Below are positions 421-47,882 of a DNA stretch of 47,882 nucleotides, one piece after another. The stretch is taken from positions 1 through 47,882 of the forward strand of contig JAIFMD010000153.1 of NCBI GenBank assembly GCA_020048755.1, read 5' to 3'. The notes under the pieces were generated by a model. It ran no database searches and was not told the DNA's origin. It was given only the letters and a program-made list of their open reading frames with translations. Position 1 is the stretch's first letter; every line of letters begins with the position of its first letter. The DNA is from Spirochaetota bacterium (lineage in GTDB: Bacteria; Spirochaetota; Spirochaetia; Treponematales; UBA12059). The position numbers and the translations under genes are program-made.

Positions 421-2211
421 CTACAGACTTCGCGCGTGCCAGCGCGCGCTTTCCGCTACGGCGCGGTAGAGTCTCGCAGTATGGATCAGGCTGTCATCCA
501 GGTTTCTTGCCCGCCCCCCGACGGCTTCAGCCGCAGAAGCAAACAGGAAGCCCACGACATCACGCGCTTCGCTTTCCAGCACGGCGGTATCAAGTTGGGT
601 CAGTTCGGCCAGCGCTTGATGAACTGCATCACCGCTGGCTCCCATGACGCTCTCGGCGACCTGAACCGCATGGTCGGCTATTCCAGCCAGCCTCAGCAGT
701 TCCAGTTTCAAGCCATCCACGACGACATCTACCGCTGTAGCGTGTGTCACATCCTGACCGCCAGGAGCGCTCATCGCATCCAGCGCGCCTCCAAGAAGAG
801 CATTCAGTTCACGACGACGCTGAGGTACATCGTACAGCGAGCCTACGGGAACATGATCCATACCTGGTATCGCGAGTCCACGAGAAGACAGGTTGTACGT
901 AGGAGCTTCGGGATGACTGGACAATTTACGGGCAAACCAGGTGGAATACAATGAAAGGCGCTCGTCACTCGTCACCTCGGAGCCATCATTGGCCCGGGCC
1001 AGGTAGGGTCGACCTCCACGCATGGCCCTGAACGCCGCGCTGGAAGCCGGGTCCAGTCTCGAACCTTCAGCCAGCGACCGTTGTTCGAAAAGACTCGCAT
1101 TGGCATGCGTTTTGCCGTCGGGAAACGACAGGTCGAGGCCTGCCATATAAATTGGAGCGCAGCCAATAATGCGGGCAAAATCCCAGGCCGTTGTAGCAAC
1201 CGAGCCACCTGCACCAAGGGAACCCTTAGGCGGACCAAGCCTGTCTTCGACATAGCGGCCAAGCGGATACATCGAAGAACACAGTGCTGTCTGCCTGGCG
1301 CGGAACCGCAATACCGAAGGCCATACGGCAGCCTCGGTGATCAGGATGCTGCCTGGAGAAGAACAGCGGTCAAGATGACGCATATTCCAGTACTGAGGGT
1401 CAACCACGATGATGAAATCAGGTTCCACACCAGTCCTGAGCACTGTCCGAAGGGCGGTATCCACACAGATTATGACCATCCGCTTTGCGAGTTCGGGCAA
1501 CAAGCCCGCGATTTCATCGAGGGAAGGGCCTGCGGCCAGCACCAGGGCGGGAAAGCCATGAAACCGTGCGACAAGGGAGGACAAGCCCGGGCAGGCCGCG
1601 GCTATTCTGATGTTCCTGGACAAGTTGTTCACCCAGAGCCGACCAAAACGACGTAGTGTAGCCGCGTTGATCTCATCCTTCTTGCGATAGCTGGCAACCT
1701 GGGATCTGAGTGCTTCCGCCGCCTCTGGGAAAGCAGCCATGGTGGCCCCGTTTTCTATGATGGCGATGGACCGGGGTGCTACTTCATCAAGATATTCCGA
1801 GACCCCGTAGCCTTCTGGACACAGAATCAGGGCACAATGTTCGTTTGATATGATGTCGACCAACTCGCTGGAATGTAGCAAGGCCGCAATCCAGGCTGCG
1901 CTGGACTCGATGACGGCAACCCTTGCACCAGAGGAGAGCGCAGCCTGTGTGGCATAGCCAAACCCCAGGCCGAGCACTACGATGAGATCGGCGCCGGTTG
2001 CAATGGCTTCATCCGCTATCCTTCGGCCTTCAGCCTGTGGGTCATAGCGAGAGTGCAACCATACCCCACAAGCCTTGGCCGTACGAGCACCGCTTCGCGC
2101 AATGGATGTTTCAAGCTGAAATGGAACAGCCGCGGCTACACAGGCAGCAAGTTCAGGCGATCGGGCGTCCAAGGCCTCAAGGTTGGCAGTATACCAGTCA
2201 GGGTTGATCAT
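421..2211 (-). CDS. Motility-associated factor (Maf) / DUF115 MptE-like protein, putative flagellin glycosyltransferase
   Basis: Motifs LHSRYDP, GLGFGY, AAGPSL, CVDTAL, VDPQ, GGSVATTA, GLDLSF typical of the Maf/DUF115 family. Overlaps the upstream PBP stop by 4 bp. Confidence 0.8.
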   Translation of the reverse strand: MINPDWYTANLEALDARSPELAACVAAAVPFQLETSIARSGARTAKACGVWLHSRYDPQAEGRRIADEAIATGADLIVVLGLGFGYATQAALSSGARVAVIESSAAWIAALLHSSELVDIISNEHCALILCPEGYGVSEYLDEVAPRSIAIIENGATMAAFPEAAEALRSQVASYRKKDEINAATLRRFGRLWVNNLSRNIRIAAACPGLSSLVARFHGFPALVLAAGPSLDEIAGLLPELAKRMVIICVDTALRTVLRTGVEPDFIIVVDPQYWNMRHLDRCSSPGSILITEAAVWPSVLRFRARQTALCSSMYPLGRYVEDRLGPPKGSLGAGGSVATTAWDFARIIGCAPIYMAGLDLSFPDGKTHANASLFEQRSLAEGSRLDPASSAAFRAMRGGRPYLARANDGSEVTSDERLSLYSTWFARKLSSHPEAPTYNLSSRGLAIPGMDHVPVGSLYDVPQRRRELNALLGGALDAMSAPGGQDVTHATAVDVVVDGLKLELLRLAGIADHAVQVAESVMGASGDAVHQALAELTQLDTAVLESEARDVVGFLFASAAEAVGGRARNLDDSLIHTARLYRAVAESARWHARSL

Positions 2212-17895: not shown

Positions 17896-20717
17896 GCGCC
17901 GCGATGCTGCAGCACTGAATCAGCCAGAGCCTTCAGGGTGCTGTCCCCGGCAGTAGTGGCGGACAAACCACTACGGTTGACGGTGTACACCCCATCGATC
18001 ATCACGATTGCGTCACCAGGCTCAGTATCTTCCAGCGGGAGGGCGTCGGACGGCCCGGTTTCAGACACGATGGGCAATTCTTCTAGCTGGCCGCTGGACC
18101 AATCAGGGTTACGATGGGAGAATGCGCTGATTATCTGGCGGTAACCAGAACCTTCAAGAGGTTCGACATCGACAATCTCTGAATCGTCAAAGGTAACAAC
18201 CTGCAACTCCTCGATACGCTCCCGTTGCTCATCGGTAAGCATAGATATTCCGTCGCTGGCTATTTCTTCTGAATAATCGGCTTCGGGCTCCGGTAATACC
18301 GAGGGTTGTACCTCCCCAAAGCTGGCATCATCGATCTCAAGGAAACCATCTTCATCGCTGTAGCCTTCGAGCCCGCTTAAATCCAGCGCGCTCAGGAAGA
18401 GGTCAAACTCGACTTCCTCAAGCAAGTCTTCCATGTCCTCAGCGGTTTCTCCAGGTTCCTGGTCAATTACCGCCAATGATACTCCCAGTTCCTGAACTGT
18501 TTCGGCTATGTCTTCAAGCGGAGATGCGAAAACCAATTCAGTAACAGGCTCTTCTTCGATGGAAATCTCGACTTCAACTCTCGCAGGTTCCTGATAGTCC
18601 GGCTCTTCTTCATACCTGCCTGCTTCAAGGTAGCCTATGATGTCAGCCAGATCAGTCTCTTCTACAAGCTCAAGGCCAAGGCTCTCAGGAATTATTGGAT
18701 AGTCATCGTCATCATCGGTTGCCAAAGCCAGAGCTTCTGCCGACAGACTGCCCCACTCGACAGCCTCTTCATCATCAGAATCAACGCTCTCAGCAAGTTC
18801 CTCGAGTTCCTCGAGAACTTCTGCTTTCTCAAGCCCGTCTGGTTTTTTGGCTTCAACTGGCTCGCTGGTTTCTTCAAGTTCCTCTAGTTCTTCAAGTTCC
18901 TCAAGTTCCTCAAGTTCCTCAAGTTCCTCAATTTCCTCAAGTTCTTCAAGTTCTTCAAGTTTTCCGGGTTCCCTGGTTTCCTCAAGTTCCCCGGCTTCTT
19001 CAAGCTCTTCAATTTCCTCTTGTTCTTGAACTTCGTTAACTACCTCGACTTCTTCAAGTTCTCCAACTTCTTCAACTTCTTCAAGTTCTTCAAGTTCTTC
19101 GGCTTCGACAAGTTCAGAAGCGGACGTGGTTGCCGGAGCTTCTACAATTTCGTCCCTGGCAATCCCGGCAGCGGCTTGTGCTTCCTCGAACGCTTCTATT
19201 TCTTCAATTTCATCAAGTTCTTCAATTTCCTCGGCTTCTTCCAACTCACCAAGTTCCTCAACGTCACCGACTTCACTGACTTCAGCGATTTCCTCGACGT
19301 CCCTGACTTCCTCAGCATCTTCAATTTCGCTGAGTTCTTCCAGGTCTTCAATTTCTTCGGCAACCTCGGTTGCTCCAACGAGGCTGGCAAGGCCGGGTTC
19401 CACCTGCACGATGCGGGAAGGACGTGTCGCAGGTGCTTGACCCTGCGCATTTCCGATAACAAATGAACCCTTGCTCAAGGCCTCTTTCAGGAGCGCTTCG
19501 ATCTTGGCCAGATCCATACCGCCCGCCCGTTCGCCCCGTGAGGTCATGACGGCAATGATCTCGTCCCAGGATTTATCTATGAGTGCATCAACATCGGCAG
19601 AGCGTTTTTTGGCTATTTTCCCAGCACTCTTGCGTATCCGGTCCCGGGTTTCGGCCCTGCGGGCCTCAAGTTCTCCCTTCCAGCGCGCGAGATCCATGTC
19701 CCCCTTGCGTTCCAGATACTCTTCAAGGAGTTCGATCTGGAAACGCTTGATCCTGCCAGCAAGCACGGCAAAACGATCCTGCCTGAGGTTCAGTAGCAAG
19801 AACAGGGCCAGATACACGGTTATGAAGAAGGTGGTGAGTAGCAACCAACGGAAGGATTCTGGCATTTCAAACCAGGAAGCGGGAACAAGCAGTCCTACGA
19901 GGCCGGATTCTCCACGCCGGGAAAACAGGATGTAGGAGCCTGAGGCTTCGGAAGCGCCTACGGGGATGGGTTCTGCGTTGGGACCGGCAGACCAGATTTC
20001 AGCTACGCGCGATACAAGATCCTGCCCCCCCCAGGCGGGGGCTCCGATCAGGATACCCTGCGTTTCTACTGCTATGACATCGTCGCCAAGCGGTATGCGA
20101 CCATCCTGCACGAGTCGTTCAAGGAGGCCAGAGAATGCAACATAGAATACGGCGCTACCGCGGTACACACCAAATCCGTCAACGAACGGGAATCTGTAGG
20201 CAAACGAGCGCTTTGTCGGAAGCGTTGTAACTGTCCCGGCCTGGCTTTCGGGGATGGACAGGAGTTCAAACGGTTCATCCCCTGCCTCGCCATAATTGCG
20301 ATACACAATCCTGAGAGATTCAGAACGGACGACATCGCCAGGAAAGGTGCTGAAGTGGATGCGTTTGCCATCCTGATCGAGGATTCTGATGCCTTGAAGC
20401 CCGGCCGTCTCCTCTGCCAGTAGTCCAAAGGTCCGCGTGCGGTCAAATATGTCCTGGGCACTCTGATTCGGCAGGAAACTGCGTCTGACATAGTCGATTT
20501 TGAGCAGTTCGGCAAAGCGCTCGATATTGCGTTGATGGTAGGCAGTCGTGGATTCGGTCAGGCCGTCTATCGAAATTTCAACAGAACGCCTGACCCGTTC
20601 ATCAAAGAAGCTGGTTTCAATGACCGAGAACAAGCCTGAATACGCCAAGGCAGCAAAGCCAGCGGCTAGCAGGGTTGAGACGAGTAGGCTTACTGAGGCC
20701 TTCTGTCCTACGGTCAT
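17892..20717 (-). CDS. Large membrane protein: TM, periplasmic sensor-like domain, TM, very acidic low-complexity cytoplasmic tail
   Basis: Long ORF (track start 20825; probable start 20717 or 20723). Two TM segments, then about 500 aa rich in E/D with (EEL)n repeats. Confidence 0.8.
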   Translation of the reverse strand: MTVGQKASVSLLVSTLLAAGFAALAYSGLFSVIETSFFDERVRRSVEISIDGLTESTTAYHQRNIERFAELLKIDYVRRSFLPNQSAQDIFDRTRTFGLLAEETAGLQGIRILDQDGKRIHFSTFPGDVVRSESLRIVYRNYGEAGDEPFELLSIPESQAGTVTTLPTKRSFAYRFPFVDGFGVYRGSAVFYVAFSGLLERLVQDGRIPLGDDVIAVETQGILIGAPAWGGQDLVSRVAEIWSAGPNAEPIPVGASEASGSYILFSRRGESGLVGLLVPASWFEMPESFRWLLLTTFFITVYLALFLLLNLRQDRFAVLAGRIKRFQIELLEEYLERKGDMDLARWKGELEARRAETRDRIRKSAGKIAKKRSADVDALIDKSWDEIIAVMTSRGERAGGMDLAKIEALLKEALSKGSFVIGNAQGQAPATRPSRIVQVEPGLASLVGATEVAEEIEDLEELSEIEDAEEVRDVEEIAEVSEVGDVEELGELEEAEEIEELDEIEEIEAFEEAQAAAGIARDEIVEAPATTSASELVEAEELEELEEVEEVGELEEVEVVNEVQEQEEIEELEEAGELEETREPGKLEELEELEEIEELEELEELEELEELEELEETSEPVEAKKPDGLEKAEVLEELEELAESVDSDDEEAVEWGSLSAEALALATDDDDDYPIIPESLGLELVEETDLADIIGYLEAGRYEEEPDYQEPARVEVEISIEEEPVTELVFASPLEDIAETVQELGVSLAVIDQEPGETAEDMEDLLEEVEFDLFLSALDLSGLEGYSDEDGFLEIDDASFGEVQPSVLPEPEADYSEEIASDGISMLTDEQRERIEELQVVTFDDSEIVDVEPLEGSGYRQIISAFSHRNPDWSSGQLEELPIVSETGPSDALPLEDTEPGDAIVMIDGVYTVNRSGLSATTAGDSTLKALADSVLQHRGA
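18871..18960. repeat. Coding 9-bp tandem repeat (about 10 copies), encoding (EEL)n
   Basis: Repeated TCAAGTTCC / TCAAGTTCT units on the plus strand; more degenerate copies extend to about 19360. Confidence 0.85.
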
Positions 20718-44936: not shown

Positions 44937-45673
44937 ATGTGCTCGCCATCGATTGTTCAGGAGAACTTTTATCAGTCGGTGTGGGCCGGGGCTGGGCAAG
45001 CGGTGGACGTGGACCTGAATCGGTCAAACATCCTTACCGCGAGGAAGCTGGACATGGCCATGCGGCAGGCCCTGGCTTTGTAGGCATATCCATAGATGCT
45101 GGTTTCAGGCATGCAGAACGCGTGATGAGCGCTGTAGAATACTGCGTTGCCGAGGCCGGACTGAAGCCGGCGGAGCTGGACCTGCTGGCCTGTGCAGGTG
45201 GCCCAGGATCATTTACCGGCCTGCGTATAGGCATGGCTACTATCAAGGGACTGTCGCTCGGCCTCGGAAAACCCTTCGTAACGGTGCCGACGCTGGACGC
45301 GATAGCCGCGGACTGGGAGGGCTCGGCCAGTATTGTCGTACCTGTCATAGATGCCAGACGATCACGATTTTACTTTGCCGTGTACGATAAGGGCCGCCTT
45401 GTAGCTGGTCCTTATGACGACGGGCTGGCGCGGCTCATAGCGCTGACGCAAGCTTACCCGGAGGTGCTGTTCGTCGGCCCCGATGCAGATTTGCTCGAAA
45501 CGACGGTGTCGGAACGCCCGGGATACAGGATAGCCACAGAGCGGCGACGGTCGCCCATAGCGGCGATGACAAGACTGGCTGTCGGGATTTTTGAACGATC
45601 CGGGCCTGGTCAGTCGGGTTCGGGGCTGGTCTACCTGCGTGCCAGCGATGCCGAGGAAGCGGTGAAGCAATGA
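44933..45673 (+). CDS. tsaB: tRNA t6A biosynthesis protein TsaB
   Basis: LAIDCS, HAE, GPGSFTGLRIG, VPTL, DARR, YLR; contains an insertion of about 30 aa. Confidence 0.93.
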   Translation: MNVLAIDCSGELLSVGVGRGWASGGRGPESVKHPYREEAGHGHAAGPGFVGISIDAGFRHAERVMSAVEYCVAEAGLKPAELDLLACAGGPGSFTGLRIGMATIKGLSLGLGKPFVTVPTLDAIAADWEGSASIVVPVIDARRSRFYFAVYDKGRLVAGPYDDGLARLIALTQAYPEVLFVGPDADLLETTVSERPGYRIATERRRSPIAAMTRLAVGIFERSGPGQSGSGLVYLRASDAEEAVKQ

Positions 45674-46797
45674 TCGATCCAGACGACGACGGACTGGAAT
45701 TGCTGGAAGTACTCGAAGAACTGGAACCAGACGAAACCCCGGTACTCTTGCCCGAAGAGCCCGGGGAAATACAGCATCCGCTACCGGCGGGACCAATTGC
45801 CGAGATTGTAAAAGACCTGGTCTCATCGTACTCCATAGTACCCCTGCCGATCGCGATCATCGATACATCGCTCTCCTTTCTTTACAGGAACAAACCGTTT
45901 GAAACACTGCTGAGGTCGTTCAACGCATCCAATAGCCCGACTCTGTTCAGTGCTATCGGCCGGTTCCTGGAAGCCGATACAGCCAGAAATCTATATGTAA
46001 ACCTTAAAGATAGCTCAAAAGGCTATAGCTGGAGTGGCACGATACGGCTCAAAGCCAAGGATGCCAGCAACGTTTTTGCAAAGACAACAATAATGCCATT
46101 CAAACCCGAAGGTCTGAATGGTTCGGAGCCACTCGCATGGGTTGTCTTCTTTGATGACGTTACCGAAGAGCGAAGCGGTTTCCTGAGGGGACTGTTCTCC
46201 AGCCTCCTTGAGGCGTCAAAACTCAAGGACAACGACACAGGCAAGCACATCGAGCGGGTAAACCTGTATACCGAACGCCTCGCCAGGGAACTCTACAGGC
46301 TGGGGTCATGGCCTGACGTCGACATCGACTTTATCGAAAACATAGGTTTCCTTGCTGCCATGCATGATGTGGGCAAGATAGGCACGCCTGACGATATCCT
46401 GAACAAGAAGGGACCGCTTGACGAGTTCGAATGGAACATCATGAAGGAGCACACGATAAACGGAGCCTTCATCCTGTCGAGCTACCCGAACCCTATGGCC
46501 AAGCAGATAGCCCAGTCGCACCACGAGTGGTGGAATGGTTCCGGCTACCCGTACAATCTTGTGGGTGACATGATTCCGTTACCCGCCCGCATTGTATCGC
46601 TGGCGGATGTGTACGACGCATTGCGCATGAAACGTAGTTACAAGCTGCCGTTCACTCATGACCGCGCCACGCTCCTCATTGCCGCCGACGCGGGAACTCA
46701 CTTTGATCCCGCGCTTGTAGACGTGTTCAAGAGCATCGCACAGGAATTCGATGAAATCTACGAGAAGAATGCTGACAAGGCAGAAGCCGAGGCCTAG
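45670..46797 (+). CDS. HD-GYP domain c-di-GMP phosphodiesterase with PAS-like N-terminal domain
   Basis: TGKHIERV, HDVGKIG, ILNK.GPL, HHEWWNGSGYP, ADVYDAL, GTHFDP. Confidence 0.92.
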   Translation: MIDPDDDGLELLEVLEELEPDETPVLLPEEPGEIQHPLPAGPIAEIVKDLVSSYSIVPLPIAIIDTSLSFLYRNKPFETLLRSFNASNSPTLFSAIGRFLEADTARNLYVNLKDSSKGYSWSGTIRLKAKDASNVFAKTTIMPFKPEGLNGSEPLAWVVFFDDVTEERSGFLRGLFSSLLEASKLKDNDTGKHIERVNLYTERLARELYRLGSWPDVDIDFIENIGFLAAMHDVGKIGTPDDILNKKGPLDEFEWNIMKEHTINGAFILSSYPNPMAKQIAQSHHEWWNGSGYPYNLVGDMIPLPARIVSLADVYDALRMKRSYKLPFTHDRATLLIAADAGTHFDPALVDVFKSIAQEFDEIYEKNADKAEAEA

Positions 46798-47039
46798 CTG
46801 CTGGACTCGCGCCGGTTGATATAACTCTCGTATGCATCGATCATGGCCTGCACGATGATATCCTGCAGTTCGCCCCGCCCCACCCAGTTGTTGCCATCAT
46901 TTATGTACAGGTGCTTCAATTGCCCCTTGGCGTCATCAAGGGTAAACGTCGGATCATCGAATTGCCTGCGCTGCAGGCTTCTTAGCGTATCTGAATAGGT
47001 GTCATCATACGAGGTCTCTTTCCATGCAGTGGTTGACAA
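46794..47039 (-). CDS. Small hypothetical protein (about 81 aa)
   Basis: Probable TTG start at 47039 after GGAGA. The longer track ORF runs through the tRNA-like element and is unlikely. Contains Y..DG..W.GRG. Confidence 0.6.
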   Translation of the reverse strand: MSTTAWKETSYDDTYSDTLRSLQRRQFDDPTFTLDDAKGQLKHLYINDGNNWVGRGELQDIIVQAMIDAYESYINRRESSS

Positions 47040-47054
47040 AGTATCTCCATGAGT

Positions 47055-47081
47055 AAAAAGCCGCCCCTTGGGGACGGCTTT
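47055..47081 (-). terminator. Rho-independent terminator after the tRNA-like element
   Basis: Minus strand AAAGCCGTCCC-CAA-GGGGCGGC-TTTTT. Confidence 0.8.
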
Positions 47082-47092
47082 AAGGAAAACTA

Positions 47093-47145
47093 TAGCGGCG
47101 GGGGGGATTGAACCCTCGACACAACGGATATGAGCCGTTTGCTCT
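47093..47145 (-). tRNA. 5'-truncated tRNA with CAT anticodon (elongator Met-like); positions 21-73 only
   Basis: Minus strand A-GAGC-A-AACGG-CTCATAT-CCGTT-GTGTC-GAGGG-TTCAATC-CCCCC-CGCCGCT-A gives the D-stem 3' strand, a perfect anticodon arm, a 5-nt variable loop, a T-arm (one mismatch), the acceptor 3' strand and discriminator A. No 5' acceptor or D strand, no CCA. Confidence 0.8.
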
Positions 47146-47150
47146 CGGAC

Positions 47151-47179
47151 TTTATACAGAACGCAGGGCTTTTTGTCAA
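47151..47179 (-). promoter_or_regulatory. Near-consensus sigma70 promoter driving the tRNA-like element
   Basis: TTGACA (47179-47174), 17 nt, TATAAA (47156-47151). Confidence 0.8.
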
Positions 47180-47882
47180 CCGCCGGTACCGGGAAAGCCT
47201 TTGGACTCGACACGCCGGTTACGACCTGCAATGGTTACCAATCCGTCCAGGGCCAGATTCGGCATGAAAAGTCCGTAACCTGCCTCAGCCATGACCACCC
47301 TGCCGGTATCATCGCCGGTTCCTATCACCGTCACAGGCACACCCAGTTCGGCAGTCATCAACTCGACAAGTCGGCGCACCAGGCCCCCATACCCCAGAAG
47401 TATGCCAGACTGGAGCGCCTGTGCGGTATTGCGGCCTATGGCGCGCCGGGGCTGATCCAGGCGGATTTCAGGGATCTGGGCTGCCGAGGCACGCAACGAC
47501 CTGGCCGCGGTCTCAAGGCCTGGTGCTATGGATGCGCCAAGCAACTCGCCAGACTGGTCGATTGCCGAAAGGACCAGTGCCGCACCAAAATCCACGATGA
47601 TGCAGGCTCCGGCATGGGTGGCTGTTGCGGCAACGGCCGAACAGACGATATCACTCCCCAGTTCAGAGGGCGTATCAGTGCGTATCTTGAGGCCAGTCTT
47701 GATACCCGGCCCTACAACTGACGCAGCAATGCCAAAAGTCGAGGATATTGCCGCGACGATGCGGGGTGTGAGGGCCGGTACGACGCTCGATATCCAGGCT
47801 TCGGCAAGCCCGAGTTCTGCGCCAAAGCCAGCACGCCGCGCGCTGGCCTCCAGCAGGATGCCGAGTTCATCAGCACTCCGGT
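47176..47882 (-). CDS. coaX: Type III pantothenate kinase (5' end outside the window)
   Basis: Frame open to the window edge: RSADELG, ISSVVP, ELGSD, IIVDFGAA, G.SIAPG, IGRNT..ALQSG, TG, L.LDGL. Confidence 0.88.
   Translation of the reverse strand, partial: RSADELGILLEASARRAGFGAELGLAEAWISSVVPALTPRIVAAISSTFGIAASVVGPGIKTGLKIRTDTPSELGSDIVCSAVAATATHAGACIIVDFGAALVLSAIDQSGELLGASIAPGLETAARSLRASAAQIPEIRLDQPRRAIGRNTAQALQSGILLGYGGLVRRLVELMTAELGVPVTVIGTGDDTGRVVMAEAGYGLFMPNLALDGLVTIAGRNRRVESKGFPGTGG

Follow-up and report, generated by a model that had tools for sequence, protein, structure and literature searches.

At one end of the stretch of DNA analysed here, a strong promoter runs straight into a tRNA-Met gene that lacks its first 20 positions, and an intrinsic terminator follows. 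An earlier note on these letters had proposed that the unit is expressed as a three-quarter tRNA, acting as one piece of a two-piece tRNA or as a decoy, and had listed a recent deletion pseudogene and an assembly error as alternatives. The question is whether such a molecule belongs to the organism or only to the contig. The window, by which we mean the whole stretch, is an entire contig (C124) of 47,882 nt from a draft genome of 234 contigs that is 64.8% complete. Our answer, to which we assign a probability of roughly 0.85, is that the “three-quarter tRNA” is an assembly artefact and not a feature of the organism, so that of the alternatives listed earlier the assembly error is the one we favour.

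A tRNA-Met gene without its first 20 positions

The locus lies on the minus strand directly behind coaX, the gene of type III pantothenate kinase, of which the window holds the 3′ part (234 codons and the stop, 47176-47880 in the list of open reading frames; Pfam PF03309, 1.6e-44). coaX reaches the window end, and its remainder is found on another contig (C11) through a 91-nt overlap that covers window positions 47792-47882. Read directly on the minus strand, the coaX stop codon TGA (47178-47176) sits within the TTGACA box (47179-47174) that forms the -35 element of the tRNA promoter, and 17 nt past this box a TATAAA box (47156-47151) forms the -10 element. The predicted transcript start lies no more than about 5 nt from tRNA position 21, near where the earlier note had placed it, thus leaving no leader. 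From the junction at 47146/47145 onwards, positions 21-73 of an elongator tRNA-Met occupy 47145-47093, a reading supported by our own covariance model and by the alignment of relatives; they comprise the 3′ strand of the D stem, the anticodon arm (anticodon CAT at 47132-47130, stem AACGG/CCGTT), a 5-nt variable loop, the T arm, the 3′ acceptor strand and the discriminator A. The terminator (47081-47055) begins 11 nt past the tRNA end with a hairpin of an 11-bp stem and a 3-nt loop (47081-47057), and continues with a T run, the U run of a transcript, to 47055. Its predicted fold reaches -19.4 kcal/mol (z = -3.4), and none of 200 shuffles was equally stable. On the 3′ side of the terminator lies a small ORF of about 79 aa on the minus strand (46794-47033), with a possible TTG start and no Pfam family; it is also found 3′ of the tRNA in at least two relatives (G004 and G005), and the downstream DNA is conserved at the loci L002 and L004. 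This ORF is convergent with an HD/HD_5-domain gene at 45670-46797.

On this layout the earlier note was right: TTGACA-17-TATAAA, positions 21-73 and a terminator 11 nt further on are all present in the minus-strand letters. It was right as well that positions 1-20 are absent and that the window holds no 5′ piece; none is found in the assembled genome either.

The remnant resembles a tRNA far more closely than chance would allow: our covariance model, made from 15 full-length relatives, scored it at 53.3 bits (E 7.9e-11), compared with 99-105 bits for complete copies. The general tools gave little: ARAGORN called 0 tRNAs in the window, Rfam at gathering scores returned 0 matches there, and the Rfam tRNA model rated the remnant at just 13.9 bits (E 5.3). 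A consensus scan of the window listed neither the tRNA promoter nor its terminator, the promoter because the rule demands a T at the end of the second hexamer, which here is TATAAA. The support for both signals comes from direct reading, from conservation in relatives and, for the terminator, from its fold. In the predicted fold of the remnant the anticodon hairpin is kept and the T arm is absent. A complete cloverleaf, with acceptor and D stems, is missing from the window letters, while it is present at this locus in 15 relatives and in an independent contig described below.

The coaX-linked tRNA-Met gene in relatives

The earlier note had suggested aligning the region downstream of coaX in related spirochetes, and this alignment speaks against its three-quarter tRNA. 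A coaX fragment was searched in 40 relatives and ARAGORN was run on the best 25 loci; in 15 of these 25, a complete tRNA-Met(CAT) lies directly 3′ of coaX, at the exact place of the remnant. The complete gene is found at 9 of 12 loci of the same genus (all 9 readable ones), at 6 of 8 loci from other genera of the same family, and at 0 of 5 loci from other families. Among the unreadable loci of the genus, L003 meets a contig end inside the promoter and L011 a contig end inside coaX; at L004 (G005:C30), 10 N stand in place of the tRNA body, preceded by the start of the leader and followed by the final letters of the acceptor stem. Assemblies of relatives break at the coaX-linked tRNA or its promoter, or carry N there, at L003, L004 and L005. 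Assemblies across the genus thus run into trouble at this place.

At all 15 tRNA-bearing loci, TTGACA and TATAAA stand upstream with a spacer of 17-18 nt, and the tRNA is followed by a G+C-rich hairpin and a T run equivalent to the terminator of the window. Since all 15 relatives have these signals around the complete gene, the promoter and terminator around the remnant are those that a normal tRNA gene has at this place. Positions 21-73 are identical in 6 relatives of the same genus, and 3 more differ at 1-2 bases. In the full-length relatives the tRNA takes the form of a cloverleaf: 95.2% of cells are paired, and 3 pairs show compensatory changes. None of these coaX-linked genes encodes CCA. 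Among named organisms, Treponemataceae and Spirochaetae MAGs come closest, in line with the spirochetal lineage suggested earlier. In short, the underlying biology is ordinary: the locus is a single-copy elongator tRNA-Met unit, linked to coaX, whose promoter and terminator are conserved across a spirochete family. The window resembles such an ordinary bacterial gene in its promoter, anticodon arm, T arm, 3′ acceptor strand, discriminator A and terminator, all of which match the relatives; it differs from it in lacking the leader end and positions 1-20, and hence goes uncalled by ARAGORN and Rfam.

Two details of the 15-gene alignment may be added. The T-stem pair 50:64 is nonstandard (A-C, C-C or U-U) in all 11 distinct sequences; at the pair 1:72, 6 of the distinct sequences have G-U and 5 have G-C.

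The type of the tRNA was assigned against the other CAT tRNAs of the draft, of which there are two. The one on contig C109 carries the marks of an initiator, namely a C1/A72 mismatch and a GGG/CCC anticodon stem. The one on contig C60 is of a type 82-84% identical, over its full length, to the E. coli tRNA annotated as tRNA-Ile with anticodon CAT, which points to a lysidine-type tRNA-Ile2. The remnant has CAT without the initiator marks and is separate from both genes. As the full-length coaX-linked tRNA gave no BLAST match in E. coli genomes, its assignment as an elongator tRNA-Met, in which we agree with the earlier note, was made by elimination.

The genome-wide count of CAT tRNAs that had been suggested thus yielded an initiator and an Ile2-like gene, but no other complete elongator gene: a second elongator tRNA-Met was not found by ARAGORN or by our own model in the 64.8%-complete draft, whose unassembled part may contain one. 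In two near-complete relatives, G003 (99% complete) and G014 (98%), a pattern search together with ARAGORN found exactly three CAT tRNAs each, which are the initiator, the Ile2-like and the coaX-adjacent genes; the pattern searches detect only [C/T]TCATA loops that are followed at 14-18 nt by a standard T loop. They were added because the model search, which scored 150 of about 2000 candidates per genome, had missed the initiator in both. In five relatives this model search gave a single match each at 99-105 bits, with runners-up at no more than 69.4 bits that ARAGORN identifies as Phe, Ala or Asn tRNAs. The evidence that the coaX-adjacent gene is the only elongator tRNA-Met in the two near-complete relatives is strong but not exhaustive. 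With no second copy found in the draft or in these two relatives, a true loss of the gene would probably be lethal. The earlier note had counted another complete elongator tRNA-Met in this genome among the findings that would speak against a functional piece; the failure to find one in the draft instead strengthens the reading as an artefact.

The missing 33 nucleotides and other broken tRNA loci

When the window is aligned with its closest relative (locus L002, coaX 90% identical), the sole large difference is one clean gap of 33 nt at 47146/47145. The missing letters (L002:2216-2248) are the last 13 nt of the leader and tRNA positions 1-20, and the tRNA body beside the gap is identical to that of L002. 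Exact microhomology is absent from the junction in this alignment; close to each end of the gap there is one copy of an imperfect, offset 6-nt repeat (AGTCCG / AGTCGG).

Eight public sequencing runs, all of DNA, contain parts of the stretch, and the contigs of four of them, from three studies, were compared with the window over 46600-47700. None of the contigs in these four runs bridges 47146/47145 in the form of the window, in a comparison of assembled contigs, which drop rare variants. In the run X1, which contains 81% of the sampled words, a contig shows 0 differences to the coaX-side flank over 47146-47388, and past 47146 it departs from the window, its next 11 letters being those with which the normal leader begins. 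From the other side, the X1 contig carrying the tRNA (depth 61) extends 7 letters beyond 47145 and there diverges from the window as well. Two close strains are present in X1 and may share the contig that enters the leader. In X3, from a different study and a strain about 5% diverged, one contig of 2803 nt has exactly 33 letters between 47145 and 47146, and these are exactly the piece that is missing relative to L002. The missing nucleotides that the earlier note had wanted to see sought in reads are thus found in contigs, their beginning in X1 and all 33 in the sister strain of X3. The junction 47146/47145 is without independent support, and the undeleted form is joined to the same flank in X1. 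Scans of metagenomes found no match for the deleted junction, nor for the strain's own promoter stretch, and with the latter unmatched the blank for the junction is uninformative.

X1 also points to a reason for trouble at this place. Its depth rises from about 8-16 in the flanks to 46-124 over 47081-47191, and the loose contig ends at this promoter/tRNA block come from other organisms. Together these mark the block as a repeat common to co-occurring genomes.

Moreover, the draft contains two more tRNA loci with similar defects. At the first (L125, C97, about 20155-20284, minus strand), the T arm of a tRNA-Leu(TAG) is fused to position 6 of a tRNA-Gly(GCC); 58 nt that 4 of 4 relatives have are missing, from the 3′ acceptor strand of Leu through the spacer to nucleotide 5 of Gly, and ARAGORN calls neither a tRNA-Leu nor a tRNA-Gly on this fusion. 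At the second (L124, C148, about 1821-1889, minus strand), a TTGACA box abuts a tRNA-Arg(CCT) at about position 26 and a terminator follows; about 53 nt that 5 of 5 relatives have are missing, from the -10 box through the leader to tRNA position 25. Three independent losses of needed tRNAs in one genome would be far more likely to come from assembly errors than from biology. The three damaged loci, with their unrelated breakpoints, fit assembly trouble at shared repeats and no split-tRNA system.

Some features of the draft bear on how it was assembled. Nine of its 30 ARAGORN tRNAs are less than 350 nt away from a contig end, and contig ends overlap by 91 nt in 31 pairs, which suggests an assembler of the de Bruijn type with k of about 91. 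We had considered a vertex of a k = 55 graph at the junction, which lies 55 nt from the shared contig end, and rejected it on account of the 91-nt overlaps. Similarly, the runs of 22, 19 and 5 N in the draft may be scaffold gaps or equally masks, and their use as proof of scaffolding with a zero-length gap was dropped.

Artefact, deletion or functional piece

In the explanation that we favour, the native unit would consist of a strong sigma-70-type promoter, a short leader to be cut by RNase P, a tRNA with no encoded CCA and an intrinsic terminator, and the living organism would carry the complete gene and make a normal tRNA-Met. The 33 nt would have been lost by an assembly error in a metagenome-derived draft contig, at a promoter/tRNA block that is common to several co-occurring relatives and stands at 5-13 times the depth of its flanks. 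The false join may have come from the abutment of two contig ends, from a merging step or from a small number of chimeric reads. Silent joins with lost nucleotides are a named and described type of assembly error; a literature search for this type of artefact gave no paper on point. As in other metagenome assemblies that fail at shared sequence, the block is of raised depth and the contigs of relatives break there. Unlike a plain break, the contig here is joined silently, with 33 nt lost (53-58 nt at the two other loci).

The other alternative listed by the earlier note, a recent deletion, is unlikely. It would be a real 33-bp deletion in the strain or in a sub-population, arising for example by slippage near AGTCCG/AGTCGG, and would leave a dead tRNA-Met behind an intact promoter, any transcript of about 90 nt being an unprocessed by-product. 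The near-repeat that flanks the gap agrees with it, as does the presence of the junction in a deposited contig: k-mer assemblers usually require supporting reads (here at k of about 91), and it counts against an artefact that those of the de Bruijn type normally require reads that contain the junction. A rare deletion would also escape the contigs of the sequencing runs, which are blind to rare variants. Yet the deleted junction is in no independent contig, and in X1 the same flank leads into the normal leader. A deletion allele would be lethal on its own if, as in the two near-complete relatives, this gene is the only elongator tRNA-Met, and the draft has no other. Furthermore, two more tRNA loci of the draft have gaps of the same kind, including the nonfunctional Leu/Gly fusion.

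A particular form of this reading, which we consider very improbable, is a real deletion in a sub-population whose predicted RNA of about 90 nt serves as a decoy for tRNA-binding enzymes or anticodon nucleases. If this were true, the decoy would keep the anticodon arm, the T arm and the 3′ acceptor strand of the only elongator tRNA-Met, and the cells bearing it would survive by a second, unassembled copy of tRNA-Met or by cross-feeding in a mixed population.

The proposal of the earlier note itself hardly survives. It sees in the locus a functional 5′-truncated tRNA-Met RNA of about 90 nt, either the 3′ piece of a split tRNA or a mimic or decoy for MetRS, modification enzymes or anticodon nucleases. 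A strong promoter and a terminator do surround the truncated piece, its anticodon hairpin is kept in the predicted fold (though its T arm is not), and the assembled 65% of the genome holds no other elongator tRNA-Met. However, this promoter and terminator are those of the full gene in all the tRNA-bearing relatives, and the undeleted form is joined to the same flank in X1; together with the full gene of the relatives and the 33 letters of X3, they leave an expressed three-quarter tRNA, whether as half of a two-piece tRNA or as a decoy, extremely improbable.

Split tRNAs are found in Nanoarchaeum equitans and some Crenarchaeota, and permuted tRNA genes in algae and Thermofilum. According to a review (PMC4033280), the partner half of a split tRNA is separately encoded, split sites are intron sites, and complementary leaders form a bulge-helix-bulge that is cut by the archaeal splicing endonuclease; Table 1 of the same review has no entry for Bacteria. 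The window is like such genes in that part of a tRNA stands behind its own promoter while the rest of the molecule is not adjacent. It is unlike them in several respects: 1- a search with blastn-short for the 5′ piece (tRNA positions 1-20, and the 33-nt piece) in the 234 contigs, of the kind that the earlier note had suggested, gave just matches of 11-16 nt (E at least 0.28), the best of them 13 nt, which is the level of chance, 2- there is no leader able to anneal with a partner piece, 3- the splicing endonuclease (PF01974) gave 0 matches in the 64.8%-complete draft, with a positive control in four archaeal genomes, 4- the split point 20/21 is no intron position and 5- the gene is contiguous in relatives. 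In addition, the two other damaged tRNA loci are broken at unrelated positions.

Although integrases often duplicate the 3′ parts of tRNA genes, an att remnant, in which the tRNA 3′ end was duplicated by integration or excision of a mobile element, is next to impossible, as it was already unlikely to the earlier note: the remnant lies at the native place of the tRNA, with upstream gene, promoter, terminator and downstream ORF as in relatives, which leaves no room for an island on either side, a second copy of the 3′ part was not found in the draft, and the breakpoint lies in the D loop with part of the leader also removed.

If the remnant is the assembly artefact that we take it to be, it has a bearing on other drafts. 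tRNA genes common to co-occurring relatives break contigs in metagenome-derived drafts, and here they would also have caused silent losses of 33-58 nt that mimic truncated or fused tRNA genes behind genuine promoters. With three cases in one draft, odd tRNA genes in such assemblies require proof at the level of reads before they are given a biological reading.

One further tRNA call in the draft may be mentioned. On contig C127 (1492-1588), ARAGORN reports a “tRNA-Gly(gcc)” of 97 nt, which does not look like a tRNA by eye and is unlisted by the Rfam tRNA model; this call is probably false.
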